IMG/VR virus record: IMGVR_UViG_3300046706_000011
Location: 1 to 64,000 of that record
Length of the DNA stretch: 64,000 nt
DNA from: a virus
Reading direction: 5' to 3' (one strand)
Below the pieces are notes generated by a model. The model saw nothing but the letters and a program-made list of their open reading frames with translations. It did no database searches and had not been told where the DNA came from. Position numbers and translations under genes: made by a program. Below, one piece after another: positions 2,232-34,746 of the stretch. Within the stretch, counting starts at the first letter, position 1, and the number at the start of each line of letters is the position of its first letter.

Positions 2232-2347
2232 GACGGAATGGCACCCGAGACAGGGCGCGGTCGCGCGCCTACCACCTTTTTGCGCCAAGACGCGCGCACG
2301 GTTTTCCCGTATACCCCCGGTCCGGACGAGACGCGCGGGAGGGGGCG

Positions 2348-3784
2348 ATGATCGAGAACGTTATCCGGTTCCCGGCCCAGGCCCGGGAGGTCCCGCACAA
2401 CATCGAGGCCGAGCACGGCGTGCTGGGCGCGATCCTGGCCGGCAACCGGGCCTACGAGCGGGTCGGCGGCTTCCTGCGGCCGGACCACTTCTACGACCCG
2501 GTCCACGGCCGCATCTACGCGGCGGCGGCGGCGGTGATCGACCGGGGCGGGGTGGCCGACCCGGTGACGCTCCGGGGGGCGTTCCGCGACGACCCGGCGC
2601 TCGCGGCGGTCGGCGGGGCGGGCTACCTCGCGGACCTCGCGGCCAGCGTGGTGAGCGTGCGCAACGCCGAGCACTACGGCCGGCTCGTCGTGGACTGCGC
2701 GATGCGGCGCGAGCTGATCGAGGCCGGGCTGGACCTGATCGCGCGGGCGTCCTCGGCGTCGCCGGACGACGCCGGGGCCGGGGCGCGGGGCGTGGTCGAG
2801 GAGACCGAGTCCCGGCTGTTCGGGCTGGCCGAGGACGGGGCGGCGGGCGGCGGGCCGCGCCCGGTCGCCGAGTTCGTGGACGCGCACGTGAAGAACGTCT
2901 ACGCGGCGCAGGACGCGCCGGACGGGATCGTCGGCCTGCGCACCGGCCTGATCGACCTGGACCGCGAGCTGCGCGGACTGAAGCCCGGCGCCCTGGTCAT
3001 CATCGCGGGAAGACCTTCGATGGGAAAAACCGCGTTGGCGCTAAATGTCGCGCATCAGGTCGCGAAGGACGGCGGGTCGCCCCTGTTCGTCAGCGAGGAG
3101 ATGCCGGGCGAGGAACTGGCCGCCCGCCTGGTCGCGGACCTGACCGGCATCCCGGTGCAGGAGCAGTTCTCGCGCCTGACGCCGGAGCAGTTCCGCCAGG
3201 TCGAGGACGCGCGCCACCAGCTCTCCGGGTCGGGCCTCTGGATCGACGACACGCCGTCGCTGACCATCGCCCGGCTGCGCACCGTCGCCCGCCGGCACAA
3301 GCGCCGGCACGGCCTGTCGGCCCTGTTCGTGGACTACCTCCAGCTCCTCCACGGCGGCGGGAAGCACGAGAACCGGGTCCAGGAGATCAGCACCATCAGC
3401 CGGGGGCTGAAGGAGATCGCCAAGGAACTGCACGTCCCGGTCATCGCCCTGTCGCAGTTGTCGCGGGCGGTCGAGAGCCGGGAGGACAAGCGGCCCATGC
3501 TCTCGGACCTTCGCGAGTCCGGCTCAATCGAGCAAGACGCCGACATCGTGGTCTTCCCGTACCGCGCGGAATACTACGTCGCCCGCCAGGAGCCGGTCCG
3601 CGGCGCCAACCAACGCGACGAGGACTTCGCGGAGAAGCGCCAGCAGTGGATCAACCTCCTGGAGGAGGTCTCCGGGACCGCCGAGATCATCATCGCCAAG
3701 TTCCGGCAGGGCAGCGCCACCTCGGTCAAGGTGGCGTTCGACGGTGCCAGGACGAAGTTCTCCGACCTCTACCGGGATCGCTGA
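2348..3784 (+). CDS. dnaB: Replicative DNA helicase DnaB
   Basis: PHNIEAE N-terminus, Walker A GRPSMGKT, DYLQL, LSQLSR, DLRESGSIEQDAD; ATG at 2348 after GAGGGGG. Confidence 0.97.
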   Translation: MIENVIRFPAQAREVPHNIEAEHGVLGAILAGNRAYERVGGFLRPDHFYDPVHGRIYAAAAAVIDRGGVADPVTLRGAFRDDPALAAVGGAGYLADLAASVVSVRNAEHYGRLVVDCAMRRELIEAGLDLIARASSASPDDAGAGARGVVEETESRLFGLAEDGAAGGGPRPVAEFVDAHVKNVYAAQDAPDGIVGLRTGLIDLDRELRGLKPGALVIIAGRPSMGKTALALNVAHQVAKDGGSPLFVSEEMPGEELAARLVADLTGIPVQEQFSRLTPEQFRQVEDARHQLSGSGLWIDDTPSLTIARLRTVARRHKRRHGLSALFVDYLQLLHGGGKHENRVQEISTISRGLKEIAKELHVPVIALSQLSRAVESREDKRPMLSDLRESGSIEQDADIVVFPYRAEYYVARQEPVRGANQRDEDFAEKRQQWINLLEEVSGTAEIIIAKFRQGSATSVKVAFDGARTKFSDLYRDR

Positions 3785-18006: not shown

Positions 18007-18097
18007 GTTTCAACCCACGCACCCGTCGGGGTGCGACTGACGTGATGGGCACCTGGGAGGGGGCCGTTTCAACCCACGCGCCCGTGAAGGGCGCGAC
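18007..18097 (-). CRISPR. Orphan type I-C-like CRISPR mini-array: 2 repeats and one 28-nt spacer
   Basis: Minus strand GTCGCGCCCTTCACGGGCGCGTGGGTTGAAAC (18097-18066), spacer GGCCCCCTCCCAGGTGCCCATCACGTCA, then GTCGCACCCCGACGGGTGCGTGGGTTGAAAC (18037-18007); GTCGC...TTGAAAC hairpin repeats are the I-C signature. Confidence 0.88.
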
Positions 18098-18124
18098 TGT
18101 CTAGGGATGCCCCGCCCCGACCTG

Positions 18125-18445
18125 CTAGGCCGCGACCGGGACGAGGTCCCGGAGCCGTTCCAGCTTCGCCTCCACCGCCCCGGCGAAGTCGCGCTCGCCG
18201 TCCCGCCACCCGTGCACGCCCCGGTCCTCCAGCGCGCGTTCCGCCACCGCCTCAAGGTCCGTCGCCTTGTCCACCGAGTATTCGCCCTCAGCGACCGAGT
18301 ACCCGATCTCGTACCGAACGAAACGGCCCGTCCTGTGCGAGTACTCGACCAAGTCGAGCCTCAGCGTCACCCGGTTCATTACCATGTCCATCCGCAGTTC
18401 CGCGAAGAGTTCTTCTGTTCCAAGGAACGCGATTACGTCCGTCAT
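18125..18445 (-). CDS. Acidic hypothetical protein, first gene of the operon (Acr candidate)
   Basis: 106 aa, D/E-rich, AGGA RBS, between the promoter and the mini-array. Confidence 0.7.
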   Translation of the reverse strand: MTDVIAFLGTEELFAELRMDMVMNRVTLRLDLVEYSHRTGRFVRYEIGYSVAEGEYSVDKATDLEAVAERALEDRGVHGWRDGERDFAGAVEAKLERLRDLVPVAA

Positions 18446-18456
18446 TTTCCTGATTT

Positions 18457-18525
18457 CCTCATTGGTGCCGACCAATGAGGGAAGTGTACTTTTCATTGAA
18501 AACAAGGTCAAACGGAAAAACCGTT
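18457..18525 (-). promoter_or_regulatory. Sigma70-type promoter with adjacent operator and 5'-UTR hairpin
   Basis: TTGACC(18511-18506)-17nt-TACACT(18488-18483); AACGG-N5-CCGTT palindrome abutting the -35; CCTCATTGGT-N4-ACCAATGAGG hairpin at 18457-18480. Confidence 0.75.
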
Positions 18526-18833
18526 CGTTAACCATTTTTCCGCGACGCCCGGACGTTCGCCGGGCATTCGTCCGGCATTCGAGGCGCATCCCAGGGACCG
18601 GCGCGGCCATCGATCCCCTTGGCCACATAATCCGTTGCGTCCGCCCGCCCCCGGCGTATCCTCAGTCGCGCGGCTTCCCCTTCACCTTGGCTGCACCAAA
18701 GCTTCCCGGCGTCGGTCCCTCGGCGCCGGGGAGCCCCCCGCCAGGGCCGGCGGGTGCCGGACACGGAAAAGGCGGGACCCTTCGGCCCCGCCCCACATCC
18801 ACCGCACGCACCGCTCGTGGACGGTTTTCCCGT

Positions 18834-19379
18834 TCAGCCCGGCGGCCCGGCCCGCTCGATCCACAAAGGCACGTTGCAGCCGCGCCAGCCCGAGGCATCG
18901 ACCACGGACGCCCGGCCGCATCCCCGTAGCGCCGCGACCGGGTCGTTGTACCGCATCAGGCGAAGCCACACGGCGCCCGCCGCCGGGTCGGCCCCCAGGG
19001 CGTCCCGAAGGCCGTCGGCGACCGCCGCCGTCTCAACCGCGCCCGCGCGCCAGCCCATCGCGTACCCGGCCCCCGCCGACGCGGCCATCCCGGACACCAG
19101 CACGCCCGCCGCCGCCAGCGCCGACCGCCACGCCAGGCGGGACGTGCGCCGCTCGACCATGCCCTCGGCCGCCGCGCCGATGGCCCGCGCCGAGCGCTCG
19201 ACCAGCGCCGCCTCGCCCTCCGGCGTCAGCCCGCGCGCCCCCGCCGCGACCGCCGCCCGGGCCGCCTGCGCCGCGTCGTGGACCGCGAGGAGCACCGCGA
19301 ACAGGGGGCGGTCGTCCCGCACCCCCGCCTGCCGGCACATCTCCCGGAATCCGCCGTCCGGATCGCTCAGGGCAGCCAT
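18834..19379 (-). CDS. TraM/MobE-like membrane mobilisation protein
   Basis: DDRPLFAVL, one TM segment, third gene of the relaxase-divergent operon. Confidence 0.5.
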   Translation of the reverse strand: MAALSDPDGGFREMCRQAGVRDDRPLFAVLLAVHDAAQAARAAVAAGARGLTPEGEAALVERSARAIGAAAEGMVERRTSRLAWRSALAAAGVLVSGMAASAGAGYAMGWRAGAVETAAVADGLRDALGADPAAGAVWLRLMRYNDPVAALRGCGRASVVDASGWRGCNVPLWIERAGPPG

Positions 19380-20170
19380 CCCGAGATCCCCAGCGTCCGG
19401 ATGTTGCGATCCAGGTCATCGAGCCAGTCCTCGGCCATGAACGACTGGACCGGGTCAAGGGGGTCCGGACCCAGGCCCGACGCGGCGTCGTGGATGCTCA
19501 GCCCGTGCTCCCGGACCTCGTCCATGCAGGCCAGCCGGGTCAGCAGGAAGGACTTCGCGCCGGCCTCGACCATCGCGCGGAACCCACGGTCGTTCATCGT
19601 TCCCTCGAACGCCCCGGCAACGGTCCTGCCGTCACGGATCACGCCCTCGTTGAGGACCAGGAGCAGCCTCTTGGGATTGAAGTACCCGGCTTCCCAGATC
19701 GACACGCAGTGCCGAAGGTCCTCCGACTCCGGACCCAGGACGTAGATCGCCAAGGGCTCGATCCCGCGCCTGGAGCAGAACTCGACCAGCTTGAGGTCGC
19801 GCCCGTACTCCAGGAGCACCCGGTCGCCGCCGCCAAGGTCGAGCACCGCCGAGCGCTTCTCCTTCACCATCGCGTTCAGGACGGAGGACAGCCACGCCTT
19901 CACGTCGGGAAGTTCCTCGCTCGACGGCGAGACGGCATCCGGGAACAGGTCGGACAGCGTCCGCGACCGGGCATCGCCGTCCGCCACGATCACCGGGCGG
20001 CCCGCCGCCATGGCCCGCCACGCCAGCTCGGCCAGCAGCGTGGACTTGCCGCCGAACCCGCGCCCCAGGCCGACTGCCAGGACGGGCGCGGGGGACGGGA
20101 CCGTGGACTTCCCCGCCGCTTGGCCGCCGGAGGTCCCGGCCGCCGCTTCAAGGACATCGTTCTTCGCCAT
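19367..20170 (-). CDS. ParA/MinD-like P-loop ATPase (TraL/MobD/StbB-like)
   Basis: Deviant Walker A GRGFGGKST, ADGD, VLDLGG. Confidence 0.75.
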   Translation of the reverse strand: MAKNDVLEAAAGTSGGQAAGKSTVPSPAPVLAVGLGRGFGGKSTLLAELAWRAMAAGRPVIVADGDARSRTLSDLFPDAVSPSSEELPDVKAWLSSVLNAMVKEKRSAVLDLGGGDRVLLEYGRDLKLVEFCSRRGIEPLAIYVLGPESEDLRHCVSIWEAGYFNPKRLLLVLNEGVIRDGRTVAGAFEGTMNDRGFRAMVEAGAKSFLLTRLACMDEVREHGLSIHDAASGLGPDPLDPVQSFMAEDWLDDLDRNIRTLGISGWLP

Positions 20171-20183
20171 GCTAATTTTCCCC

Positions 20184-20636
20184 TTACTTCCTCGATGATC
20201 GTCTGTTCAGCTCGGCCCGCATCCGGGCCAGGGCGTCGTGGGCGGACTCACCCTCCGCCGAGGGCGCCGGCCGGTCCGGTTCCCGGGCGTCCGGGAGAGT
20301 GTCCAGCGAAGGCCCGACGAGCGAGGCATCGCCGCCCCGTTGAACCGAAGCCTTCCTCGCCTTCCTCGCCGCGCGCTTGGCGTGCTCCTTCTGAACCCGC
20401 CACCATGTCACCCGAAGCCGATCGCCGGACGGCGACTTGCCCTTGGTGTCCACGAGGCCGCCTTCCCGGAACTTCTCGGCCAGCATGTCCCAGTTCGGGC
20501 GGCGGTCCTCCACCAGCGCCGCGAACTCGTCATGATTGTCCAGGAACCATTGCGACACCGGGGAGCGCCTGGAACCCCCCTCGCGAAGGACCGACCGGAT
20601 CTTGCCAAGCACGTCGGGTTTGCCATTCTCCGTCAC
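20184..20636 (-). CDS. TraK/MobC/StbA-like accessory DNA-binding protein
   Basis: RRSPVSQWFLDNHDEF...PNWDMLA...TWWRV; position upstream of the ATPase and divergent from the relaxase. Confidence 0.55.
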   Translation of the reverse strand: MTENGKPDVLGKIRSVLREGGSRRSPVSQWFLDNHDEFAALVEDRRPNWDMLAEKFREGGLVDTKGKSPSGDRLRVTWWRVQKEHAKRAARKARKASVQRGGDASLVGPSLDTLPDAREPDRPAPSAEGESAHDALARMRAELNRRSSRK

Positions 20637-20694: not shown

Positions 20695-21267
20695 TCATGG
20701 GGTTGTTAAATACGGCTGGTCGATCGCACCATTCAGGTTGGCACCCCTCAGGTCCGCGGCCCCCACGTCGGCCAGCCGCATCTTGGAGCCATCCAGCTTG
20801 GCGCCCCTCAGCTTGGCGCCCCCCAGGTTTGCGAGCGTCAGGTCGCACCCCCTTAGGTCGGAGAGCGTCAGGTTGGCGCCCGTCAGGTTTGCGTCCTTCA
20901 GATTGGCCATCCTCAGGTCAGCGCCCGTCAGGTCCGCACCGCCCAGGTTGACAAGCTGCAGGTTGGCACGCTGCAGGCAGGCGTCCGTCAGGTCCGCACG
21001 CCGAAGGTCCACGTTCATCAGGTCCGCGCCCTCAAGAACCGCATCCGTCAGGTCGGCACGCCGCAGGTCGGCGCTACACAGGTCGGCACACCTCAGGTCG
21101 GCCCGCCGAAGGTCCGCGCCCCTCAGCTTGGCCAGCCTCAGATTGGCACGCATCCCATACGGGTCGGCTGCCAGCCAGCGTGCGTGCCGGGCCAGGATGT
21201 CGGCCAGCGGCTCCCCATCATGCTTCACGCCAGTCATGCGCCGGATCATCCGGATCATTTCAGTCAC
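20695..21267 (-). CDS. Pentapeptide-repeat protein 3
   Basis: ILARHARWL N-cap followed by A(D/N)LxG repeats. Confidence 0.92.
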   Translation of the reverse strand: MTEMIRMIRRMTGVKHDGEPLADILARHARWLAADPYGMRANLRLAKLRGADLRRADLRCADLCSADLRRADLTDAVLEGADLMNVDLRRADLTDACLQRANLQLVNLGGADLTGADLRMANLKDANLTGANLTLSDLRGCDLTLANLGGAKLRGAKLDGSKMRLADVGAADLRGANLNGAIDQPYLTTP

Positions 21268-21280
21268 CTAAAATTCCTCC

Positions 21281-21682
21281 TCACGGGATGATGGAAGCCG
21301 GCGCGTCGATCGCGCCCTCCAGGTTGGCGCCCCTCAGGTCTGCCAACTCCAGCTTGGCGCCCATCAGGTTGACATACCGCAAGTCCGCACCCCTCAGGTC
21401 GGAACGCCGCAGGTCGGTGCCCCTCAGGTCGGAACGACGAAGGTCCGCACCCCTCAGGTTGGCCCGCTTCAGGTTGGAATTCCTCATGTCCGCGCCCCCC
21501 ATGGTGGCACACCACAGGTCTGCACCCGACAGGTCGGCGTCGCTCAGGTCCGCGCCGGACAGGTTGGCGCAGGGCAGGGCGGCACCCTTCAGGTTGGCAG
21601 ACCTCAGGTCGGCCCCCCTCAGGTTGGCCAGCGGCTCCCCTTTGTGCGTCATGCCGGCGATGGCTTCGGTCTTTTCGGTCAT
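21281..21682 (-). CDS. Pentapeptide-repeat protein 2
   Basis: MTEKTEAIAG...ANLRGADLRS repeats; GAGGAG RBS. Confidence 0.9.
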   Translation of the reverse strand: MTEKTEAIAGMTHKGEPLANLRGADLRSANLKGAALPCANLSGADLSDADLSGADLWCATMGGADMRNSNLKRANLRGADLRRSDLRGTDLRRSDLRGADLRYVNLMGAKLELADLRGANLEGAIDAPASIIP

Positions 21683-21696
21683 TTCCAACTCCTCGG

Positions 21697-22122
21697 TCAC
21701 GAGGTCGTGGAAGTCGGCGCGTCGATCGCGCCTTCCAGCTTGGCGCCCCTCAGGTCTGCGTCCGTCAGATTGGCCCGCCGCAGGTCGGCACCCCTCAGGT
21801 ACGCGCCCCCTAGGTCGGCCCCCGACAGGTCCGCTCCCGTCAGGTCCGCACCGCCCAGGTTGGCGTTCCTCATGTCGGCTCTCCGCAGGTCCGCGCCCCT
21901 CAGGTCGGCGTAGGGCAGGACTGCGCCCCTCAGGCCCGCCAACCTCAGATCCGCGCCGGACAGGTCTGCGTGGGGCAGGGCGGCGCCTCTCAGATCCGCC
22001 AGCCTCAGGTCGGCGCCGGACAGGTCGGCACGCCGGCCCTTCGGGTCGCCGGCTATCCAAAGTGCATGCCGGGCCAGGACCTCGGTGATCATCGGGTTCG
22101 TCCGGATGGCTGCGCTGGTCAT
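21697..22122 (-). CDS. Pentapeptide-repeat protein 1
   Basis: [10 protein letters not shown]-cap, [10 protein letters not shown] repeats; GGAG RBS. Confidence 0.92.
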
Positions 22123-22440
22123 GTCGTCGTCTCCGTCCGTTGCGTCTCATTGCTTCCTTGAAACAGACAATAACGCAGCCGTATCACGTCATCAACATAA
22201 AAAGACCATTGGTTAAAAATCCGTATCACATAATATATGCAAAGTTATGTATACGTTATTCGGAGTCAACACGCCGCACCCGGTCGATACACGCCCGTCG
22301 CGGTGCCGCTGCAATTCCGCCTCAACGGCATCTCGCTTCCGTATCGGCTCCGTACCGGTCCCGTATCGAAGACGCGGCCGAAGCAAGCCGAAGCGCAGGC
22401 CCAGGCCCCAGGCGACGACGCAAGCCCAAGGCCGAGCCGC

Positions 22441-22760: not shown

Positions 22761-22917
22761 GGTCCGGGCCTCGGCGGCGGGGCGGGGCGGGGGTTTTGCC
22801 GAGGCAATCCAGGGGTTGCCTGGATACCGGAAGTGGGCTACATTGTAGTTCGTTTTGAACGTCCCGCCGCCCCTTTCACCGACCATCCCACCGACCATCG
22901 CGAGGATCAGCGTCCCG

Positions 22918-24930
22918 ATGCCCATCAGCACGCTCCATGACCGGCGCCTCCAGGCCGAGCGGGACTTCCGGCTGCGGTTCGCGCGGGGCGGGGAGGCCTC
23001 GACCCGGGACGCGGGCCGGGGGCGGGTCCTGGGCGGAGGCTGGGGGACGGCGGGGGCGATCTCCCGGCCGGCACCGGTCGCGGCCACCGCAGCGCCGGCC
23101 ACCATAGCGCCGGCCCCTGTGCGCCGTGCCGGTCCGGGGGCTGGGCGGCCCGGGGGCGTCGGCCTGGACGCCGCGTCGGGGATCACGACGACGGGCCGGA
23201 CGACGCGGGGCGTCCTGCTCAAGCCCCCGGCGCCGTGGAAGCAGGCGGTGACGGTCAAGGCCTCGTACAAGGAACGCAAGGGGACCGGGGCGGAGACGGC
23301 GCGTCGGTTCCGGGCCGCGCTGTCGCGCCAGGGAAAGTACAACACGCGGGAGGACCGGGAGAGCGCGCGGGGCGGGACCGAGCCGGTCGAGGCGTTCACG
23401 GCGCGGGACGACGGCGTCGAGATCGGGGCCGCGACGGCGGCGTGGGTCGAGGACCGGCGGTACTGGAAGCTGATCGTGAGCCCCGAGCGCGGGCGTGACC
23501 TGCGGGACATGAAGGGCTACGTCCGCGACCTGATGGCCCAGGTCCAGCAGGACGTCCTGTATCCCTCCGAGCTTCGCCGGGGCCGGGAGGTCGAGTGGGT
23601 CGCGGCGGTCCATGACGACACGGACCATCCCCACGCGCACATCCTGATGCGCGGCCGGCTCGGCGACAAGGACCTCGGCCTGCGCCCGGACTACGTCGCG
23701 CACGGCATCCGGGCTCGGGCGGCGGAGGTCGCGACGCGGGAGCTTGGGCCGAGGACGGGCCTGGACGCGCCCGCGATGGGCGTCGAGGAACTTCGGGAGT
23801 TCGCGGCCCGGGACCCCGAGACGGGACCGGCGGCCGGGCTCGGCGCGATCCCCGAGGGCATCCCGCTCCCTGAGATGGACAGCCGGTTCCGCGCGGCCGG
23901 CTGGCGGGTCCGGGTCACGCTGGACACGGCCGCGCGGGACCGGGTCGCCGTGCTGCGCGAAGACCTGCGGGGAATGAAGGTGGGCGCGAAGATGAACCGG
24001 GAGACCGGCGAGCTGACGCTCTACGCGGGGACCTACATGGGCGCGCAACTGGTCGGCCGGATCGTCGGGAACGGGTACGCCGACATCGTCCGCCCCGCGG
24101 GGGCTGCGGCGAAGGCGCGCGGGCTGGAGATGGCGGACGGGGTGTGGGCGTCCTTCGAGGCGAAGGGCGACGACGACCGGTTCGGCCGCCTGGGCGCGGC
24201 CGGGGTCGTGTTCACGCGGGCCGACGAGCGGCGCATCCTGGAGCCCGGCGCGGACGTGGAGGCCGAGACCGACCGGGCGGTGTTCCGGGCGAACGAATGG
24301 CACAACCATTACCACCCGGAAAGCTTCCTGGGGGCGGGGGCGGCGGAGCGGGGGGACGGACAGCCCGAGGCGGGCTGGGTCCTCAGGGTCCACGCGGGCG
24401 AGGCCGCCGGGGACGTCGTGAAGCTCCTGGGCGTCGTTGACATGCAGTACCGGGTCGTGCCCGGCGGGTCCGTCGATGCGGACGGCCGCCCGGTCGATGC
24501 CGTGGTGGTCTACGCGGGACCCATGGACGCGGCGAACGAGATCGTGGACGCGCTGGAGATCGCGGTTGGGAACCGGCTGGAGAGCCCGGCCGGGGACGGG
24601 TCGGCGCATCGGTTCCTGGACGGGATCGACGGCCGGTACGTCCCGCACAGCATCGCGGAGGGTCAGTTCTCGGACCGCTGGGTCAACGGCGTCCCGCTGC
24701 TGAGCGGGTGGGAGGACTCGGTCGGGTTCCTCGGCGAGGATGCCGTCCTGGACGAAGCCGCCGGGATGCTCGCGGAAATGGACGGGGCGGCGTTCCACGG
24801 CGGGCACGACGACGGCGCCTCGGTCGGCCTGGACGACGCCGACCCCTCGGACCTTGGCCTGCCCGACCCGTGGGAACGGGCCGGCGGGGGAATTCATGAA
24901 ACCCATGCGTGGGAGGGACTGGAACTGTGA
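22918..24930 (+). CDS. Conjugative relaxase (MOBP, VirD2-like) with an unrecognised C-terminal domain; start uncertain (ORF opens at 22855)
   Basis: YWKLIVSPE (motif II), WVAAVHDDTDHPHAHILMRG (HUH motif III), candidate catalytic Tyr in GKYNTRE. Confidence 0.9.
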   Translation: MPISTLHDRRLQAERDFRLRFARGGEASTRDAGRGRVLGGGWGTAGAISRPAPVAATAAPATIAPAPVRRAGPGAGRPGGVGLDAASGITTTGRTTRGVLLKPPAPWKQAVTVKASYKERKGTGAETARRFRAALSRQGKYNTREDRESARGGTEPVEAFTARDDGVEIGAATAAWVEDRRYWKLIVSPERGRDLRDMKGYVRDLMAQVQQDVLYPSELRRGREVEWVAAVHDDTDHPHAHILMRGRLGDKDLGLRPDYVAHGIRARAAEVATRELGPRTGLDAPAMGVEELREFAARDPETGPAAGLGAIPEGIPLPEMDSRFRAAGWRVRVTLDTAARDRVAVLREDLRGMKVGAKMNRETGELTLYAGTYMGAQLVGRIVGNGYADIVRPAGAAAKARGLEMADGVWASFEAKGDDDRFGRLGAAGVVFTRADERRILEPGADVEAETDRAVFRANEWHNHYHPESFLGAGAAERGDGQPEAGWVLRVHAGEAAGDVVKLLGVVDMQYRVVPGGSVDADGRPVDAVVVYAGPMDAANEIVDALEIAVGNRLESPAGDGSAHRFLDGIDGRYVPHSIAEGQFSDRWVNGVPLLSGWEDSVGFLGEDAVLDEAAGMLAEMDGAAFHGGHDDGASVGLDDADPSDLGLPDPWERAGGGIHETHAWEGLEL

Positions 24931-25160
24931 ATTTCGATCCGTTCTTCGGCTACTCGGAAACGACGGCCTTCGCGGCGGCGGGCGGGGCGGTGGCCCTCCT
25001 GTTCGCGCTTCGGTTCGGCGTTCCCGGCCTTTACCGGTCGGTCGTTCGCCGAGCCCGGCGGCGGCGGCACCCGGAGCTTGACCCCGGCTCCCCGTGGGCG
25101 ACGCGGCGGGATCGGGAACGCTACGGCCTGCGCCCGGCGACGCGCTGGTGGAAGCCGTGA
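24927..25160 (+). CDS. Separate N-terminal membrane anchor of the coupling protein
   Basis: TM helix then GSPWAT..D...GL, like the GSARWAT motif after the TM region of TraG/VirD4. Confidence 0.6.
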   Translation: MNFDPFFGYSETTAFAAAGGAVALLFALRFGVPGLYRSVVRRARRRRHPELDPGSPWATRRDRERYGLRPATRWWKP

Positions 25161-26674
25161 GGCCGGGCGGCGGCATCGTGATCGGCGAGGACCCGGACGA
25201 CGGGGAGCTGCTGATCGACAAGAGCCAGGACCACGTCCTGGTCGAGGGGCCGAGCGGGACGGGCAAGACGACCTCGTTCTTCATCCCGACGCTGGCGCGG
25301 ACCTGGGTCGGCTCCGCCGTCGTCCACCTGCGGATGAAGGACCTGTACCTGATGCTCCAGGGGACCCGGAAATGGCGCCACAACCTGATCCTCGCGCCGT
25401 CCGAGCCGTGGTCGGTCCGCTACAATCCGTTCGCGGAGATCGGCACGGGGGCGGACGCCGTGACCGACTGCCAGAACATCGCGCACATGCTGCCCCACGG
25501 CGGGAAGATCAGCGCTCGGGACCCGATCTGGGACACGAACTCGGTCGGGTTGGTGTCGGCGATGATCCTGTTCCTGCTGAACTTCGCCGAGGACGACCGG
25601 AAGAACTTCTCCGGCCTGATCGAGCTTCACGAGCAGCGCATGGAGGGGGCGCAGCGGATGATGCGCAACCTGCATCCCGACCCGTGGGTGCGGAACTTCA
25701 TCGACTACGGCGCGCGCAAGATCTACCAGAACGAGAACGCGCGGTACGCGGACAGCATCGTGGCGACGATCGACGGCTACCTTGAGGCGTTCAACAACCC
25801 GATGGTCAGCGACATCACCCGCGAGAGCGAGTTCCGGATCGCCGACCTCGTGTGCGGGCCGCACCCGGTGGCGCTGTGGCTCTACCTTCCCCCCCACCAT
25901 AGCGACCGTCTGGCGCCGCTGGCCCGGATCGTCACGTCCCAGGTCCTCAAGAAACTGATGGCGGACGACCTCGCCTCGGGGGAACTCAACGTCGATGGGG
26001 TGCGCCGGGAATGGCCGATGCTGTTCTGCCTGGACGAGATGAACCGCATGGGGGTGTTGTCCGAGGTCGAGGGGGCCTACGCCGACATGCGGAACTCGGC
26101 GTGCCGGGTCATGGCCGGGACGCAGTCGATCCCGGTCCTGACCGACCCGAGGATGTACGGTCCCAACTCATTGATCGCGTCGCAGAGCAAGCGGGTGATC
26201 CTGAAACCCAAGGGCCTGGCCGAGGCGCGCAACGCCTCGGCGATGCTGCCGCTCGTGAAGAAGCGCCAGTACTCGGCGTCCGAGAACTTCGGCACGGTCG
26301 AGGAGCGCCGGGGCAGCGGCCTGACGGAAAGCTTGGCGGACCGTCCCCTGATGCGACCCGACGAGATCCTGGCGATGCCGGTCGAGAAGGTGATCGTCCC
26401 GGGGTTCGACAAGCCCTTGTTCGTCAACCGCCCGTCCTGGGGCCACTGGAAGGACCTGCTCGATCCGGTGCCGACGCGCTTGTGGCCCGACCTGCACGTA
26501 CCGTTCCTGCCGGTCCGGGCGGACGGGGCCTACCTGGACCTTCCGAAGCGGACGCTGGGGGCCAACCCGTGGCACGGGGTCCGGCATCCGGTCGAGGGGG
26601 AGCCGGTGACCGTGGACGTGGGCCTGGACGGCGGGGCCGAGACGGGCAGATCGCCCGAGCTTATTTCACTTTGA
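25157..26674 (+). CDS. traG: Type IV coupling protein TraG/VirD4 (cytoplasmic part)
   Basis: HVLVEGPSGTGKT Walker A, RYNPFAEI, CLDE Walker B, TQS, RPLMRPDEI. Confidence 0.9.
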   Translation: MRPGGGIVIGEDPDDGELLIDKSQDHVLVEGPSGTGKTTSFFIPTLARTWVGSAVVHLRMKDLYLMLQGTRKWRHNLILAPSEPWSVRYNPFAEIGTGADAVTDCQNIAHMLPHGGKISARDPIWDTNSVGLVSAMILFLLNFAEDDRKNFSGLIELHEQRMEGAQRMMRNLHPDPWVRNFIDYGARKIYQNENARYADSIVATIDGYLEAFNNPMVSDITRESEFRIADLVCGPHPVALWLYLPPHHSDRLAPLARIVTSQVLKKLMADDLASGELNVDGVRREWPMLFCLDEMNRMGVLSEVEGAYADMRNSACRVMAGTQSIPVLTDPRMYGPNSLIASQSKRVILKPKGLAEARNASAMLPLVKKRQYSASENFGTVEERRGSGLTESLADRPLMRPDEILAMPVEKVIVPGFDKPLFVNRPSWGHWKDLLDPVPTRLWPDLHVPFLPVRADGAYLDLPKRTLGANPWHGVRHPVEGEPVTVDVGLDGGAETGRSPELISL

Positions 26675-26685
26675 CGAGGTACGCG

Positions 26686-27060
26686 ATGAGGAAGGAACGG
26701 AAAGAGGAGCGCACGGTGTCGTTCTTCGCGGGCGACCTGGAGTGGCTTGACCGGCAGGCGGCTCGGCGGAAGGCCGGGCGGAGCGCCCTGCTCGCCGAGA
26801 TGATCGCGGCGGCGCGGGGCGAGGCGGTCGAGGACGACGCGCTGAAGATGGTGGTGGAGCGCCTTGGCCGGGTGGAGGCGATGGTGAAGTCCCTGGCCGG
26901 GATCGCGGTCGGGCTCGACCGCCACGCCCGGCGCACGCGGGCGATGGTGTCGCTGGACCAGCAGGTGGCGATCCTGGGCGAGGCGGCGCGGCCCAGGACG
27001 CTGGAACAATTGAAGCTGAGAACCGAGCAACTTGAGGAGGGATACATCCGTGAGATTTAG
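26686..27060 (+). CDS. CopG/RHH protein
   Basis: RTVSF...LDRQAARRKAGRSALLAEMI; occupies the traG-RHH-trbB slot. Confidence 0.7.
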   Translation: MRKERKEERTVSFFAGDLEWLDRQAARRKAGRSALLAEMIAAARGEAVEDDALKMVVERLGRVEAMVKSLAGIAVGLDRHARRTRAMVSLDQQVAILGEAARPRTLEQLKLRTEQLEEGYIREI

Positions 27061-28027
27061 CCAAACAGCCCGTGCGACGACGTTCAACCTGCTCCTCAAG
27101 CTTCTGGGGAGCGAGATCGTCGGCCACATGACGGACCCGCTGGTCGAGGACATCTTCCTGAACTCCAACGGGGCCGGGTTCGTCCGGTACGCCGGCAAGA
27201 AAACCAAGCTGGGAGTGAGCGTCGATGGCGAGGCGATGAGCCTGATCATCGGCTATGCCGGGACCCTGGTCGGGATGACGGCGGACGGGGTCGCCCGGTT
27301 CGCGGTGGACGGCAAGCTGCCGAGCGGGCAGCGGTTCCACGGGGTCGTCCCGCCCCGCGCGGCCCAGGGTCCGTACATCGTCATGCGAAACCCGCCGCGC
27401 ACGATCCACACGCTGGGCAGCTATGTCGATCAGGGGGTCATGACGGCGGCGGTGGCGGACCAGCTCCGGAGTGACGTGGACGATGCGAAGACCATCGTGA
27501 TCGGGGGCGTCACGGGGGCGGGCAAGACCTCCCTGATGACCTGCCTCGTCAACACGGGCGCGGCGCGGGAAGCGCGCATCGTGCTGCTGGAGGACGCCGA
27601 GGAAGTCAACGTGGACGCCGTCGAGGATCGCATCGTCAAGTCCACGCTGGGCGGGACCATGGACGAGCTGGCCTACGACGCGCTCCGGGAACGGCCCGAG
27701 CGTATCTACATCGGCGAGGTTCGCGACCGGGCCATGAAGACGTGGCTTGAGGTCGTCGGCACGGGGCATCCGGGCTCGATGGTCACGCTCCACGCGGGCA
27801 GCCCGAGGGGTGTGATGGCCAGGGCCGAGCAGCTCGTCTCCGAGGCCGTGGTGGACGTCGCGGGCCAGCGCCCGGTGCTGTGCGACACCATCGACCGGGT
27901 CGTGGTCGTGGCGCTGGGCCGGGACGGGAAGCGCCGCGTGCCGGGCGTCTACGCGCCGGCCGGGCATAAGGACGGCCGCTATGAAATTCGCACTGTCGCG
28001 GGGGACGAAGGTTGTGCTACAACTTAG
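27050..28027 (+). CDS. trbB: T4SS ATPase TrbB/VirB11
   Basis: GGVTGAGKTS, LEDAEE, ALRERPERIYIGEVR, TGHPG..TLHA. Confidence 0.95.
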   Translation: MRFSQTARATTFNLLLKLLGSEIVGHMTDPLVEDIFLNSNGAGFVRYAGKKTKLGVSVDGEAMSLIIGYAGTLVGMTADGVARFAVDGKLPSGQRFHGVVPPRAAQGPYIVMRNPPRTIHTLGSYVDQGVMTAAVADQLRSDVDDAKTIVIGGVTGAGKTSLMTCLVNTGAAREARIVLLEDAEEVNVDAVEDRIVKSTLGGTMDELAYDALRERPERIYIGEVRDRAMKTWLEVVGTGHPGSMVTLHAGSPRGVMARAEQLVSEAVVDVAGQRPVLCDTIDRVVVVALGRDGKRRVPGVYAPAGHKDGRYEIRTVAGDEGCATT

Positions 28028-28028
28028 C

Positions 28029-28045
28029 GGGCTACAATGTAGCCC
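28029..28045. promoter_or_regulatory. Perfect copy of the tra palindromic operator
   Basis: GGGCTACA-A-TGTAGCCC; variants at 22835, 31453, 35477 and 38434. Confidence 0.75.
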
Positions 28046-28079
28046 ATTCCACGCAACACCCTGGAACGAGGATTTCGAC

Positions 28080-28418
28080 ATGCGGAACCTATCCAAGCTC
28101 CGTCACCGCGAGGCCCTGGCCTGGACCTTCGCCCTGTGCCTGTTCGCGCTGTGGAGCGACCCGGCCTGGGCGCAGGTCGGCGGCGAGATACCCGGCGGGA
28201 CGTACCTGATCTCGATGATGGACACGATCGTGTCCTTCATCCGGATGAACCTGGGTCCGATCGTGGTCGTCCTCGTCGTGTTCGCGGGGGTGTTCGGGTG
28301 CGCCGCGGGCGACTGGAACCGCGGCATGGGCCGGGTCGTCATGGGCCTCGTCGCCGGGGCGTTCATCGCCGGCTCGACGCTGTGGTGGCCGTGGGTCAAG
28401 ACGTGGTTCACGGCATGA
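28080..28418 (+). CDS. trbC: Pilin TrbC/VirB2
   Basis: Signal peptide ending PAWA-Q, two hydrophobic helices, position after trbB. Confidence 0.8.
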   Translation: MRNLSKLRHREALAWTFALCLFALWSDPAWAQVGGEIPGGTYLISMMDTIVSFIRMNLGPIVVVLVVFAGVFGCAAGDWNRGMGRVVMGLVAGAFIAGSTLWWPWVKTWFTA

Positions 28419-28708
28419 TCCGGGACGGCAGCATCCAGATCCTGGGTGCCGGCACCCTGCCCTACGTCTGGGGCGGGGTGCGGTTCTCGGTGTGGACGTT
28501 CCTGGCGCTCTGGGTCGTGGGCGCCGGGGCGGTCCAGCTCTACCTGACGCCGTTCGGGATGCTGAGGGGGCTGTCCGGGATCTTCGTGGTCGGGTCCATG
28601 GTCTGGTTCCTGGGCTGGGTCATGACCCAGAGGAACCCCTTCTTCCCGGAGGTCTTCGCGACGTGGCTCTGGCGCACGGTGCGCCGGGCGCATTCACTGA
28701 AGAGCTGA
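28415..28708 (+). CDS. trbD: TrbD/VirB3
   Basis: Two TM segments, NPFFPEV motif, between pilin and VirB4. Confidence 0.75.
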   Translation: MIRDGSIQILGAGTLPYVWGGVRFSVWTFLALWVVGAGAVQLYLTPFGMLRGLSGIFVVGSMVWFLGWVMTQRNPFFPEVFATWLWRTVRRAHSLKS

Positions 28709-28721
28709 GAGGATCTGAGAG

Positions 28722-31241
28722 TTGGGCGTCATCGCAGCGATGAGGGACATGCTCGCCGGAGGCGACTGGTACTTCTGGGACGAGTTGCCGTGGTCGAGCG
28801 GGATCGAGACGGGGGACGGCCCGTGCCGGGTCGTCGAGTGCCGGAACCGGTCCTGGATGTCGTGCCTGAGGCTCGACCCGCCGGACCTGGAGTGCGGGAC
28901 GGAGGCGGACCGCCTGCGCCACGCGCTGCTCTTCCACGGCGCCCTGCGGGCCTTGGGCGGCGGGCACGTGGTCTGGATCGACGAGCACCACGACCCGGAG
29001 CGACCCTACCCGGCGGCGAAGCCGGCGAACCCGGCGGCGCGGCGGTTCGAGGAAGCGCGGGACCGGACCTACGGCGAGGTCGTCGGGCACTGGCGCTCGA
29101 CCCACTACCTGACGGTCCAGTGGCGCAAGCCGCCGCAGTGGATCGAGAAGCTGTCCCGGCTGGTCCTCGTGGCGCACCCCGGGGACCGTGCCCGGGACTA
29201 CGGGCCGGCCTTCCAGGCGTTCAACGACCGGGTCGCGGGACTGGAGGGGCAGCTCGCCTTCCTCGGCGCGAAGGTGCTGGAGGGGGACGGCCTCGCGGCC
29301 TACCTGCACGACACGGTCAGCCGGGTCCGGCAGCCGGTGAGGTTCGGCAACTGGCAGGACTGGATCTCGCCGCAACTGGTGGACATGCCGATCAACGCCA
29401 TGGAGCGGGACGACGGCGGGGCGCTGACCATCGGCGTCGGGGACGACAAGGAATACGTCGTCCCGGTCACGGTCCACAGCTACCCGGCGGGCGTCGATGC
29501 CGGGATACTCGACGGGACGGAGGACTTCGCCGGGGTGGCGTCACTGCCGATCACATACCGCCGCGTCACCCGGATCGCGATCCAGGCGAAGACCGAGGCG
29601 GTCAAGGACATGGCCGCGTTGCGCCGCAAGGCGGAGATGACCCGCCAGAACCTCCTGCGGACGACCCTCCAGCAGTTCTACCCGAACGCGCCCCAACGCC
29701 TGAACTACGAGGCCGACCACGCCGCGCAGGAGGTCGAGGAATGGCTCAAGGACCTTGCGCGGGGCAAGACGCTGCGGTGCCAGAACACGACGACCTTCCT
29801 CGTCTACCACCGGGACGCGGGGGTCGCGATGGAACAGGCGAGGATGATCCTGATGCACCTCCGGGAGACCGCGGGGCTCGTGGCCCAGGTCGGGCGGCTC
29901 GGCGCGCTGGAGAGCTTCCTGGGGACGGTGCCGGGCAACAGCGACCACGACTTCGTCCGGCCCTACACGAACACCTTGGCGAGCGGCGGTCTGGCGCCGC
30001 TGTCGAACACCTGGGGCGGGCGGCGGCACGACCCGGTGCTCAAGGGTCCGCCGCTCCTGGTCGGCACGACGAACGAGTCGATCCGGCACCACGTCGTCCT
30101 GTCGCCCGAGGGCGACGGCATGGCGAGCCACGCGGTCATCACCGGCCCGTCCGGGTCGGGCAAGACGGCCGCCATCAACGAAATGTGCTTCGGTTTCCTG
30201 AAGTACCGGGGCACGCGGGTATTCCGGATCGACAAGGGGCGGTCGGCCTACGTCTCGACCCTGTGCGCCGGGGGGACGATCATCGACCCGGTGCTGTCCG
30301 GCGAGGGTTTCCAGCCCCTGCGTTTCATCGCGGACTGGAAGGAGCGGGTCTGGGCGAAGGCATGGCTGACAGCCTACGTCCGGATGCGCGACCCGGCGCT
30401 GGCCAACGACCCGGCGGTGGACGCGGCGATCAAGGACACGCTGGAGTGCCTGGGCAAGGCGCTCGACCCGGACGACCTGGACATGTCGGCGTTCGTCAAC
30501 GCGCTGTCCCATCCGGGGTTGCAGGCGGCCCTTCGTCCCCTGACCCGCGACGGTTCGCTGGGCTACGTGTTCGACGCCATCGACCGCCGGTCCTACGACG
30601 CCGACTGGACCAGCGTCGAGCTGGACGAGCTGGTCGAGGACGAGGAGGTCGCCGGGCCGCTGATGGCGTACCTGTGGCACATGATCCGGCGGCTGTGCCA
30701 CCGGGACCGCCCGATGCTGATCCCCATCGACGAGGCGTGGATGGCGATGAAGGGACCGTTCAAGGACATGCTGAACAAGGGGATGAGGACGTTCCGGCGG
30801 GAGAACGCGCGGGTCGTGTTCGCGTCGCAGAGTGCGGTGGACATCGCGTCGAGCGAGCTGGCGGGGATCATCGTGAACTCGTGCTCGCTGAAGATGGTCT
30901 TCCCGGACAGCGCGATCGCCTCCCCCGAGGTCGCGGCGGCGTACATGGTCCTCCAGGTCCGCCCCCAGTGGATGGATCGGCTGAACTACCGGTTCCAGGG
31001 CGGGGAGCCCCGTTTCTGCCTCGTGATGCAGGACGGGGGCGCGCGGTTCATGCACTTCGACATGGAGGAGGAGACCGACCCGGAGGCGTTCTGGATGTGC
31101 TGCGCGACCAACAGCGGGGCGGTGGCCGACGCGCTGCGCGTCCGGGACATGGGAGGTTCGTTCCTGGACGACTGGCTCGGCGAGAAGGTGCACGGCAAAC
31201 GGGCGCGGCCTCCGGTCCCGGCCCTGGCGGCAGCCGAATGA
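28722..31241 (+). CDS. trbE: T4SS ATPase TrbE/VirB4
   Basis: DELPW, TVPGN, HAVITGPSGSGKT, IDKGRS, IDEAW, FRRENARVVFASQS. Confidence 0.95.
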   Translation: MGVIAAMRDMLAGGDWYFWDELPWSSGIETGDGPCRVVECRNRSWMSCLRLDPPDLECGTEADRLRHALLFHGALRALGGGHVVWIDEHHDPERPYPAAKPANPAARRFEEARDRTYGEVVGHWRSTHYLTVQWRKPPQWIEKLSRLVLVAHPGDRARDYGPAFQAFNDRVAGLEGQLAFLGAKVLEGDGLAAYLHDTVSRVRQPVRFGNWQDWISPQLVDMPINAMERDDGGALTIGVGDDKEYVVPVTVHSYPAGVDAGILDGTEDFAGVASLPITYRRVTRIAIQAKTEAVKDMAALRRKAEMTRQNLLRTTLQQFYPNAPQRLNYEADHAAQEVEEWLKDLARGKTLRCQNTTTFLVYHRDAGVAMEQARMILMHLRETAGLVAQVGRLGALESFLGTVPGNSDHDFVRPYTNTLASGGLAPLSNTWGGRRHDPVLKGPPLLVGTTNESIRHHVVLSPEGDGMASHAVITGPSGSGKTAAINEMCFGFLKYRGTRVFRIDKGRSAYVSTLCAGGTIIDPVLSGEGFQPLRFIADWKERVWAKAWLTAYVRMRDPALANDPAVDAAIKDTLECLGKALDPDDLDMSAFVNALSHPGLQAALRPLTRDGSLGYVFDAIDRRSYDADWTSVELDELVEDEEVAGPLMAYLWHMIRRLCHRDRPMLIPIDEAWMAMKGPFKDMLNKGMRTFRRENARVVFASQSAVDIASSELAGIIVNSCSLKMVFPDSAIASPEVAAAYMVLQVRPQWMDRLNYRFQGGEPRFCLVMQDGGARFMHFDMEEETDPEAFWMCCATNSGAVADALRVRDMGGSFLDDWLGEKVHGKRARPPVPALAAAE

Positions 31242-31528
31242 GGGGGTCGGAATACCTTGCGCTGCGCGTCGCGGCCTGCACCGCGGTGATGGCGCTGGGC
31301 GGCGGCTTCGTGTTCGCGGTGGCGCGCTGGGTCCTGCCGTGGCTGATGGGTCGGGTTTCGCAGGCGTATCCGGGACCGCTCGCGGCGTTCGCCGGGATCG
31401 TGTTCGGGATGGGGGTGATTGTCCTTGTGAGTCATGGACTTCGGGTGATAGTGGGCTATACTCTACTACGCATCGACCGGCTGGCGGACGGCGGGTCGCG
31501 GATCACCGACGAGGATGGGGGGGATTGA
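31238..31528 (+). CDS. Small two-TM protein
   Basis: ATGA coupling to trbE; hydrophobic. Confidence 0.6.
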   Translation: MRGSEYLALRVAACTAVMALGGGFVFAVARWVLPWLMGRVSQAYPGPLAAFAGIVFGMGVIVLVSHGLRVIVGYTLLRIDRLADGGSRITDEDGGD

Positions 31529-31529
31529 C

Positions 31530-31877
31530 ATGGATTGGCAGAAAATCAAGGCAACGGCTGGAGCCGTGACGGGGTCGGTTTGGCGGAATGGCCGCAATGT
31601 CCTGGCGTTTGCCGGCGCGGTATCCATCGGGGTCGATGCCTTGGTGCGTTCACAATTGGACGTGGCAACGGTCCCGTCGGTAACAATCGAACTAGGCAAA
31701 TTCCTGGAGCTGAAGTACCAGATCGTGGCGATCACCTTGATTCCGTTGTTGGCGTTGATTGCGTTGTTGGCGTTCATTTCCATTACGCGCGGGTTCTGGG
31801 ATGGGTTCATCGCCTTCACCGAGTCCACCGCATGGGACGCAACGAAGTGCGCGTTGGCGAAGCGGTTCCGCCGGTGA
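31530..31877 (+). CDS. Small membrane protein (lower GC)
   Basis: Long hydrophobic segment; coupled to the next gene by GTGA. Confidence 0.55.
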   Translation: MDWQKIKATAGAVTGSVWRNGRNVLAFAGAVSIGVDALVRSQLDVATVPSVTIELGKFLELKYQIVAITLIPLLALIALLAFISITRGFWDGFIAFTESTAWDATKCALAKRFRR

Positions 31878-33193
31878 CGACGGTTTCGCGCCTTGCCGCG
31901 GCGCTCATCGCGGGGACGGTCCTCGCCGGGAGCGGCCCCGCCCTGGCACAGTTCCGGGTCGGCGGGCTCGTCCCGGTCGGAGCCGAGGACGTGGCCGCCA
32001 TCGACGCGGCGCTGGACGAGATGCGGAGCGCCGGATGGACGGCGGAGGAAATGGACATCCGGCTTCGTCGGGAAGGCTACGTGCTGGACCGGGCGGTCCT
32101 GGACGGCGACGTGGCCGTGGCGGACGGCCGGGTCCGGGGCATGGTCGCCGAGGTGGCCGGCGCCGGGGACCCGGCGGGCGGGGACCCGGCGGGCGGGGAC
32201 GGCCGGGCGCCGAACCGGCAGCCGACCCCCTTCGAGCGCGGACTCGCGGGCGTCGCGGGCAACGTCGGGAACACCGACGAGGAAATCCTGCGGGCGATGC
32301 AGGGCGGGAACTCCCAGCTCTGGGCGCGGATGACCGGCATCCTGTCGGGACGCTCGGTCACGAACCGGGCCAACCAAGTGATCGACGGAGCGACCGGTGC
32401 CGCCACGCGCCCGATCCGGGAAGCCGGCGACGCCGCCGTGAACACCGTCATGCAGCCGATCGAGGACACCGTTGACACCGCCGCCCAGTCGGCCATGTGT
32501 TCCCTCGGCTCCGCCGCCCTGGGGGCTGCCGCCTCGCTCGTCAGCGCCGTGTTCAGCGGGGGCAAGGCCACGTACGGCGCCCAGGTCGCGCAATGGCTGA
32601 CGGGGATCAGCAGTCAAGTCTGCCTGGGCCAGCAGCTCGCGGTGCAGAAGCGCATGGTGGCGCTCCAGCAGCGCATGGTGGCGCCAATCGGACGTAACGT
32701 GGTCGGTCAGGCGGGCGGCGTCAGCGGCGTGGTGCTGGATTCCATCGGCCTCCTCGACGCGGAAGAGGTCGCCAGGGGCTACCAGGACGGCGCCAGCGCC
32801 GACCTCGCCCCCGGCGCCTCCCTGGCGATGCAGCGCCTCCTTCGCGCCCGGACGGATCAGGCGCGGCGTGCCGCGCTGGAGACGGCGGCGCTCAACGTCG
32901 CGGCGGAGCGGGCCTATTCGGATATGGCCGACCGGGCGCTCGACCTGAGCCAGTCGGCCCGGGGACAGACCTCGGCCGTCCAGGCGCTGGCCCAGTTGCA
33001 GCGGGCCAATGAGGGGGCGGCGGCGGCGCGGCATTCTTCCCAGATGGCCTTCAGCAACGCGGCCCTGGTAGCGGAAGAGGAGGACCGCGCGAGCGAGCGC
33101 CTTGCCGCCGCCCGCCGGGCGCGGTTCTATTCGGGCCTCGGCCCGTCCGGCAGCCAGGAAGCGGCGGCGCCGGGTTTCAACCTTTTCCAGTGA
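31874..33193 (+). CDS. TrbJ/VirB5-like secreted protein (divergent, extended)
   Basis: Signal peptide ..GPALA-Q; SQSARGQTSAVQA helix typical of the TrbJ C-terminus; position before trbL. Confidence 0.6.
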   Translation: MTTVSRLAAALIAGTVLAGSGPALAQFRVGGLVPVGAEDVAAIDAALDEMRSAGWTAEEMDIRLRREGYVLDRAVLDGDVAVADGRVRGMVAEVAGAGDPAGGDPAGGDGRAPNRQPTPFERGLAGVAGNVGNTDEEILRAMQGGNSQLWARMTGILSGRSVTNRANQVIDGATGAATRPIREAGDAAVNTVMQPIEDTVDTAAQSAMCSLGSAALGAAASLVSAVFSGGKATYGAQVAQWLTGISSQVCLGQQLAVQKRMVALQQRMVAPIGRNVVGQAGGVSGVVLDSIGLLDAEEVARGYQDGASADLAPGASLAMQRLLRARTDQARRAALETAALNVAAERAYSDMADRALDLSQSARGQTSAVQALAQLQRANEGAAAARHSSQMAFSNAALVAEEEDRASERLAAARRARFYSGLGPSGSQEAAAPGFNLFQ

Positions 33194-33202
33194 GGAGTCG
33201 TC

Positions 33203-33469: not shown

Positions 33470-33472
33470 CCC

Positions 33473-34744: not shown

Positions 34745-34746
34745 CC

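Follow-up and report, generated by a model that had tools for sequence, protein, structure and literature searches.

What are two CRISPR repeats doing between two small genes of a mobile element on which no cas genes were found? The question is raised by the IMG/VR virus record IMGVR_UViG_3300046706_000011, the first 64,000 nucleotides of which are called the window here. On the minus strand of the window, two repeats of the type I-C form lie 28 nt apart inside an operon. The original prediction, made from the letters of the window, was that these repeats are an element-borne mini-array with one short spacer, and that the host Cas5c would cut it out of the mRNA as a short crRNA acting as a decoy, a non-cleaving transcriptional silencer or a guide against competitors. 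Below we describe the cassette, compare it with natural arrays and with a relative in which the repeats are absent, and weigh what it may do.

Anatomy of the cassette and its operon

Read along the minus strand, the cassette consists of a canonical type I-C repeat of 32 nt, R1 (18097..18066; GTCGCGCCCTTCACGGGCGCGTGGGTTGAAAC), a 28-nt segment (18065..18038; GGCCCCCTCCCAGGTGCCCATCACGTCA) and a I-C-type repeat of 31 nt, R2 (18037..18007; GTCGCACCCCGACGGGTGCGTGGGTTGAAAC). The stems of R1 and R2 are one compensatory pair apart, with a G-C pair in R1 and an A-U pair in R2, and the loops are TTCAC in R1 and the 4-nt CGAC in R2. The repeats, their lengths and the paired stem change are thus all as the original prediction described them, on the minus strand. 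The 7-bp hairpins of both repeats were present in the predicted fold. A degenerate I-C repeat pattern had one match in the window versus none in 100 shuffles, and R1 and R2 are the sole I-C repeat copies in the complete record of 90.5 kb. Rfam contained no family for the cassette. Profile searches for Cas5d and Cas1 found nothing in the 90.5-kb record, and the claim that cas genes are missing from the window extends in this respect to the whole record.

R1 begins 27 nt past the stop codon of gene 1 and R2 ends 31 nt ahead of the start codon of gene 2. These 31 nt do contain the RBS of gene 2, as had been proposed (GGAGA, 17987-17983, minus strand; ATG at 17975), and the RBS is kept in the relative described below. 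The placement of the cassette in sense orientation between genes 1 and 2 of an operon also held, but the upstream gene is one of 106 aa (18445-18125) and not the 167-aa ORF to which the original prediction assigned this place.

Gene 1 (P0001; 18125..18445, minus strand) has a frame with high GC3 and an AGGAAA RBS. It has one relative in the protein collection, P0003, which is 76% identical and is encoded on L086, a metagenome contig of 4,463 bp that carries the locus of this relative. Gene 2 (P0002; 17676..17975, minus strand) encodes a protein of 99 aa that belongs to no known family and is 84% identical to its homologue in L086. Past gene 2 there is a run of small orphan genes, followed by genes for a DUF6197 protein, an HNH endonuclease, a Dcm-like methylase and a nuclease. 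We considered gene 1 as an anti-CRISPR gene and rejected it, as its product had no match in Pfam, PHROG or NCBIfam and its confidently predicted fold (pLDDT 84) had no match in the PDB. Neither the gene 1 nor the gene 2 product resembles a known Acr.

A sigma70-like promoter, TTGACC-17-TACACT (18483..18511, minus strand), was the sole promoter-like site in 17500-19000, where 0.1 would be expected. Between this promoter and the RBS of gene 1 is a palindromic operator-like site, the inverted repeat CTCATTGGT-cggc-ACCAATGAG (18454..18483), which is kept in L086. A block of approximately 40 nt that includes the -35 and -10 boxes is identical in the window and in L086, whereas the flanks are just 65-78% identical. 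From its sequence, the conserved promoter block with its palindrome (within 18454-18540 of the window and 2085-2150 of L086) looks like an autoregulated early promoter. No terminator-like site was found on this strand between the promoter and gene 2. Gene 1 ends directly upstream of R1, and the prediction that the array has no AT-rich leader is correct to the extent that none adjoins it; however, the promoter with its palindromic operator is AT-rich and lies approximately 350 nt upstream of R1 (18511-18454), before gene 1.

Comparison with natural type I-C repeats

For this comparison we scanned one genome per species for the repeat form GTCGCGCCC-N5-GGGCGCGTGGGTTGAAAC. It occurred in 68 stretches of genome contigs, many of which are arrays of 10-80 repeats beside I-C cas genes. 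R1, including its loop, is identical at 32/32 positions to the array repeats of Roseateles terrae CECT 7247 (L058) and of a Lautropia MAG (L051), and the R. terrae array sits after a complete cas3-cas5c-cas8c-cas7-cas4-cas1 operon. The A-U stem variant of R2 was found naturally as well (L027), and the ends of R2 are the same as those of R1; the 4-nt loop of R2 was absent among the natural repeats matched in the scan. On these sequence features the repeats are of type I-C, the 32-nt form of which has GTCGC followed by a 7-bp GC stem, a 5-nt loop and a 3' handle ending in TTGAAAC.

The distance between the two repeats is abnormal, because all 1,072 natural spacers beside this repeat form were 31-40 nt long, with 0 of 30 nt or less. 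The description of the 28-nt spacer as shorter than usual for type I-C is supported by this sample. Among short-spacer I-C units sought in IMG/VR there were only two matches, both within ordinary arrays.

The same scan also returned solitary copies of this repeat form on MAG contigs of Acidobacteriota, Thauera, Proteobacteria and Oceanospirillales (L011, 6345-6376; L021, 5570-5601; L026, 3910-3941; and L040, on the minus strand at position 4783 of the reverse complement). In each case there is no other copy in the surrounding 400 nt, and these repeats are candidates for units of the Racr type, Racrs being RNA anti-CRISPRs. The copy in L021 is approximately 300 nt from the end of the stored locus, and a second copy downstream of it is possible.

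The 28 nt between the repeats are native to the locus

L086 is collinear over 4.4 kb with 16.0-20.6 kb of the window, with DNA identity of 65-93%, and the two have the promoter block, the operator, gene 1, the RBS and gene 2 in common. The region between genes 1 and 2 of L086 contains no CRISPR repeat. When this region was aligned with that of the window there were just two gaps, one of 37 nt and one of 38 nt. Relative to L086, the 37-nt insertion is AGACA (18102-18098) plus R1 and the 38-nt insertion is A (18038) plus R2 plus AAACAA (18006-18001), both read on the minus strand. Because the two repeat blocks are the only gaps in the intergenic region, the gain at this locus was one of repeats instead of a guide.

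Between the two gaps L086 reads GCCCCCTCCCAGGCGCCCATCGCGTC, which matches 24/28 of the spacer, or 24/26 over the aligned core. Because this match is at the same intergenic position in a contig without the repeats, the comparison identifies the 28 nt as native DNA framed by two inserted repeats and not as an acquired spacer. The term of the original prediction, a mini-array with a spacer, therefore does not apply to the cassette in its usual meaning. We estimate that the chance of a segment acquired in trans landing at its own allelic position in the same orientation is approximately 1 in 2,000 on an element of 90 kb.

The structure of the locus is informative about where the repeats entered. 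L086 has a perfect 9-bp hairpin, GGAGGGGGC-CTC-GCCCCCTCC, the right arm of which is the start of the spacer-like sequence. In the window, the left arm of this ancestral hairpin (GGGGCGGGGC; 18109..18118, minus strand) is slightly decayed versus L086. R1 seems to have landed in the loop of an existing hairpin, because in the MFE fold this left arm still pairs across R1 with the first 11 nt of the 28-mer, GGCCCCCUCCC. A distant gene 1 homologue on plasmid pSR-1 of Skermanella rosea also has a plain hairpin downstream and no repeats; this homologue has 40% identity over 73 aa, which was significant in local comparison only, and synteny backs the homology. Most simply read, these sequences point to an ancestral hairpin and an ancestral 28-nt segment, with R1 entering the hairpin loop and R2 entering 28 nt downstream. 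The polarity of the change, that is two insertions here versus two deletions in L086, we infer from one close relative and a distant outgroup.

L086 also contains a native 13-mer, TCGCGTCCTTCAC (2520-2532), that matches positions 2-14 in the 5' half of R1 at 12/13 positions, a match reached in 1/500 shuffles. It may be a vestige of an older repeat, which would make the history more complex, or a microhomology that guided insertion.

Several other origins were considered and set aside. Exactly at the insertion point of R1, the opposite strand of L086 has the start of a canonical 35-nt protospacer with a TTC PAM. This raised the possibility that a repeat-spacer-repeat unit was captured from a host, which we rejected because the orientation of the repeats, the position of R2 and the 28-nt spacing do not agree with it. 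Ectopic integration by Cas1-Cas2 was rejected because the target-site duplication expected of it is absent. An adaptive CRISPR array is likewise rejected, as the spacer is 28 nt and native and there is neither an adjacent leader nor a cas gene detected by the Cas5d and Cas1 profiles. That the cassette is the remnant of a longer array is unsupported.

Further relatives were sought in several collections. Contigs of the source soil metagenome, when aligned to this DNA, contained no empty-site allele. Searches of IMG/VR with P0001, P0002, the alignment of a ParA-like protein encoded near the cassette and the conserved promoter block returned no relatives, and P0001 had no match among plasmids. 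In 401 genomes from the order of Roseateles, the DNA from 12.5 to 22.2 kb matched nothing beyond pentapeptide sequences and CRISPR repeats, and the 3-kb region had no match in the phage genome collection.

The carrier element and its plausible hosts

The record is classed as a virus by IMG/VR and has a G+C content of 70.7%. It encodes a conjugation set (an RlxS/MOBP-like relaxase, a coupling protein, and VirB4-like and TrbL/VirB6-like proteins) and a phage tail set (a tape-measure protein, a lambda-J-like tip protein, an NlpC/P60 protein, and beta-helix and head-fibre-like proteins). Together, the two sets lie within 22855-37794 and 43018-63695 of the window and 64-90 kb of the record (L081, L082). 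The tail tip protein is closest to those of Rhizobium siphophages, at approximately 36% identity, and the VirB4-like protein is closest to that of a Skermanella plasmid. No capsid or terminase was found among the scanned ORFs. For the carrier, a conjugative phage-plasmid, a tailocin-bearing plasmid and a chimeric assembly are all conceivable. A protein of 1,090 aa with Calx-beta domains and an extreme GC3 of 0.98 is encoded at 43018-46290, adjoining the tail genes, and the element also has a gene for a complete replicative helicase of the DnaB type (2228-3784; Pfam, E 2e-87).

The promoter, gene 1 and the cassette come directly after a relaxase-proximal trio of genes (18834..20636, minus strand) that encodes a 150-aa protein, the ParA-like ATPase (19367-20170) and a 181-aa protein. 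Genes on Skermanella and Roseomonas plasmids encode proteins with 64-71% identity to this ATPase, and on those plasmids the gene sits in a three-gene set that adjoins, and is divergent from, relaxase or coupling-protein genes. By analogy with leader operons beside oriT, the block past the trio, including the cassette, is probably the leading region of the element. Anti-defence genes are known to cluster in leading regions (PMC11541004). Tandem pentapeptide-repeat proteins (20695-22150; Pfam PF00805, E 1e-36 and 2e-30), which may be DNA mimics, are encoded between the trio and the presumed oriT region.

Because of the resemblance to Skermanella and Roseomonas plasmid genes, the host is likely to be a high-GC alphaproteobacterium of the Azospirillaceae or Acetobacteraceae. 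Plasmids or chromids with type I-C cas8c genes are found in Acidisoma, Azospirillum, Tistrella, Geminicoccaceae, Rhizobium and Zymomonas. In the source soil metagenome, a contig of low depth (2.1x versus 10x for the element) contains two R1-like repeats with a 35-nt spacer of lower GC between them, and this is a genuine I-C array from the same community. Nothing here therefore points to the refuting case named with the original prediction, in which plausible hosts would be without a I-C system. None of 1,188 natural I-C spacers matched the record or L086. This DNA was listed for the source soil metagenome only and for no RNA run.

A tentative reading of the cassette as a repeat decoy

We favour, with somewhat less than even confidence, the idea that the cassette is a Racr-like repeat decoy, a I-C mimic unit built in place. 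According to this idea, two I-C repeat hairpins would have been inserted 28 nt apart into the native DNA between genes 1 and 2, and the operon promoter would transcribe through both R1 and R2. In a type I-C host, binding of Cas5c to each hairpin would be followed by a cut at the 3' base of that hairpin. This would release a crRNA-like RNA of approximately 60 nt, made up of an 11-nt handle, the 28 nt of native sequence and a 20-nt hairpin. The released RNA could then soak up Cas5c, Cas7 and Cas8c in complexes that have no useful guide and that would probably be one Cas7 short (28 = 34 - 6). Such sequestration would blunt I-C interference while the element becomes established.

We rank this reading first because the gain at the locus was of repeats and not of a guide. 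It is also supported by the identity of R1 to natural repeats and by the R2 hairpin, which is kept by a compensatory pair, as well as by the combination of one promoter, no terminator ahead of gene 2 and no Cas5d or Cas1 in the record. The location of the cassette adds to this, since small orphan genes and the cassette follow the relaxase-proximal trio and leading regions are rich in anti-defence functions. Finally, there is a precedent for type I-C in RacrIC1, and I-C systems are present in related hosts. There are also points against a decoy. The Racrs described so far are solitary, and the presence here of two repeats with the spacing of a crRNA unit suggests that the released guide matters. 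In addition, neither neighbouring protein is like a known Acr, the I-C repeat of the putative host is a presumed one, there is a single close relative, and L086 contains the 13-mer described above.

Alternatives to a decoy

If the released guide does matter, the relatives of the element that lack the repeats are one candidate target. This follows from the in-place origin of the cassette, because the released RNA matches the ancestral, repeat-free allele. The host Cascade-Cas3 would then destroy these relatives, whether incoming or co-resident, or prime against them, and the carrier would be spared because its own copy is flanked by a repeat instead of a PAM. The two-repeat layout gives a complete crRNA unit, the spacer matches one known relative (L086), and viral mini-arrays mostly have spacers against kin of the carrier (PMC11656645). 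Type I-C interference is also permissive, as PAMs other than TTC, such as CTC and TCC, work (PMC5602111). However, the PAM position in L086 is CCT, with CTC reached only by a shift of 1 nt, and there are mismatches at position 1, which is in the seed, and at positions 15, 23 and 28. This would not allow efficient cleavage and priming would be expected at best. The length of 28 nt is also below that of all natural spacers of this repeat form.

Searches for other targets likewise argue against such a guide. The exact 28-mer and the 26-nt core pattern had no match in IMG/VR. A blastn search of plasmids with the 136-nt cassette region, comprising the repeats and the spacer, returned only a chance-level match of 25/28 on a Ralstonia megaplasmid (E = 4). 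In the rest of the record the best match was 19/28, in agreement with the earlier statement that the spacer has no self-match, and the two genomes with the identical repeat contained no match to the 28-mer with three or fewer mismatches. The guide that the original prediction envisaged therefore has a kin match in L086 but no target in IMG/VR, in plasmids searched with the 136-nt query or in the record. We consider targeting of repeat-less kin unlikely.

We regard it as similarly doubtful that the cassette is a functionless scar, left without any selected role when the element and a host CRISPR array underwent illegitimate recombination or repair with each other. In keeping with a scar, the cassette is known from one record only, the relative L086 is without it, searches of IMG/VR returned no more relatives and R1 is perfectly identical to natural repeats, as would suit a recent event. 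Against this, both hairpins are intact and R2 differs from R1 in a compensatory pair, which is unlike random decay; we estimate that two stem changes would be paired and still complementary in approximately 3% of cases. It is also unlikely that two separate insertions would by accident have the same orientation and a crRNA-like spacing, and an early operon of small genes fits a function.

There is a smaller chance that the cassette produces a regulatory RNA of the Cracr type, in which a short guide steers the host Cascade, without cleavage, to a partial match in a cas or creT promoter and silences it. A spacer shorter than the canonical length is a hallmark of viral Cracrs, I-C Cracrs exist, and 16/219 candidates are on plasmids (bioRxiv 10.1101/2024.10.29.618823). 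By contrast with Cracr spacers, which come from host CreR/CreA, the 28 nt here are the intergenic DNA of the element itself, and R1 and R2 are near-canonical and not degenerate. There was no PAM-plus-seed match in the I-C locus of R. terrae, which has the identical repeat. Across 638 kb of I-C loci there were 13 seed matches versus 3 for a reversed control; one of the matches has a TTC PAM and none stands out. This reading is the least consistent with a native 28-mer.

Very little probability is given to the idea that the cassette is a host-sensing mRNA switch, in which cuts by Cas5c would part gene 1 from gene 2 and the downstream genes and alter stability or translation only in I-C hosts. 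The position of the repeats within the transcript and in sense orientation, close to the gene 1 stop and the gene 2 start, is what such a switch would need, and the repeats replace the plain intergenic hairpin seen in L086 and pSR-1. Nevertheless, a limited literature search found no precedent, a single repeat would be enough, and any such effect may be a mere by-product of decoy function. Most improbable of all is a self-favouring allele, in which native DNA framed by host repeats would direct Cascade-Cas3 against the repeat-free allele of kin while the carrier is immune, so that competitors are eliminated or are occasionally repaired from the repeat-bearing copy, giving homing or gene-drive-like spread among plasmids.

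Relation to known CRISPR-repeat mimics

The three activities named in the original prediction correspond to known categories, a decoy to Racr (PMC10651486), a non-cleaving silencer to Cracr (bioRxiv 10.1101/2024.10.29.618823) and a competitor-targeting guide to mini-arrays (PMC11656645). Racrs are RNA anti-CRISPRs in the form of solitary repeat units on phages and plasmids that tie up Cas proteins (Camara-Wilpert et al., Nature 2023, PMC10651486). One of these, RacrIC1, acts as an inhibitor of type I-C and shares a bicistronic RNA with acrIC5, the gene 11 nt upstream of it (PMC10651486). Like a Racr, the cassette mimics a host repeat on a mobile element without cas genes and has an upstream promoter, which here is 350 nt away with gene 1 between. 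Like RacrIC1, it is of type I-C, the type in which Cas5c is the processing enzyme, and it would be co-transcribed with a small protein gene, R1 following gene 1 by 27 nt where RacrIC1 follows acrIC5 by 11 nt. It differs from Racrs in having two repeats 28 nt apart, at the spacing of a crRNA unit, instead of one. In addition, its neighbours are not known Acrs, the carrier is conjugative and plasmid-like, and the activity is putative.

Cracrs (Liu et al., bioRxiv 10.1101/2024.10.29.618823) are viral crRNA-like copies of host CreR/CreA that have short spacers and act by silencing cas or creT promoters. The cassette shares with them a repeat-spacer-repeat structure on a phage or plasmid, a sub-canonical spacer and a predicted Cascade with fewer Cas7 subunits. 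By contrast, Cracr spacers copy CreR/CreA and match cas or creT promoters, whereas the 28 nt here are native, no promoter target was found and the repeats are not degenerate. The CreR/CreA mini-arrays of hosts (PMC10120712; bioRxiv 10.1101/2023.03.10.532045) are also two-repeat units, and they give a non-immune crRNA-like RNA, as the cassette is predicted to do. Those units sit within cas loci, their second repeat is degraded and their pairing with an adjacent promoter is partial; the cassette shares none of these traits.

The spacers of viral mini-arrays mostly target relatives of the carrier, in inter-element competition (2019 work reviewed in PMC11656645). As in these mini-arrays, the repeats of the cassette equal those of natural arrays, cas genes are absent and the spacer matches a relative of the carrier. 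However, the match of the cassette is at its own allelic position, the spacer was not acquired elsewhere and is 28 nt versus 31-40 nt, and its one known target is without a canonical PAM and has a seed mismatch. Together, these comparisons place the cassette among the CRISPR-repeat mimics borne by mobile genetic elements, with two features that are new, a native "spacer" at its own locus and a conjugative plasmid-like carrier.

To our knowledge, repeat mimics such as Racrs, Cracrs and mini-arrays are a recently recognised form of counter-defence, and we know of no account of their origin. The empty-site relative indicates that a crRNA-like unit can be assembled in place, from host repeats around native DNA, inside the hairpin that normally lies downstream of the first gene in an early operon. 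Should the cassette be active, RNA anti-CRISPRs would reach the likely leading region of alphaproteobacterial conjugative elements, and the cassette would provide a natural type I-C guide that is one Cas7 step below normal. If it is active, it would also become testable whether a host CRISPR system can be turned on the repeat-free relatives of the carrier.
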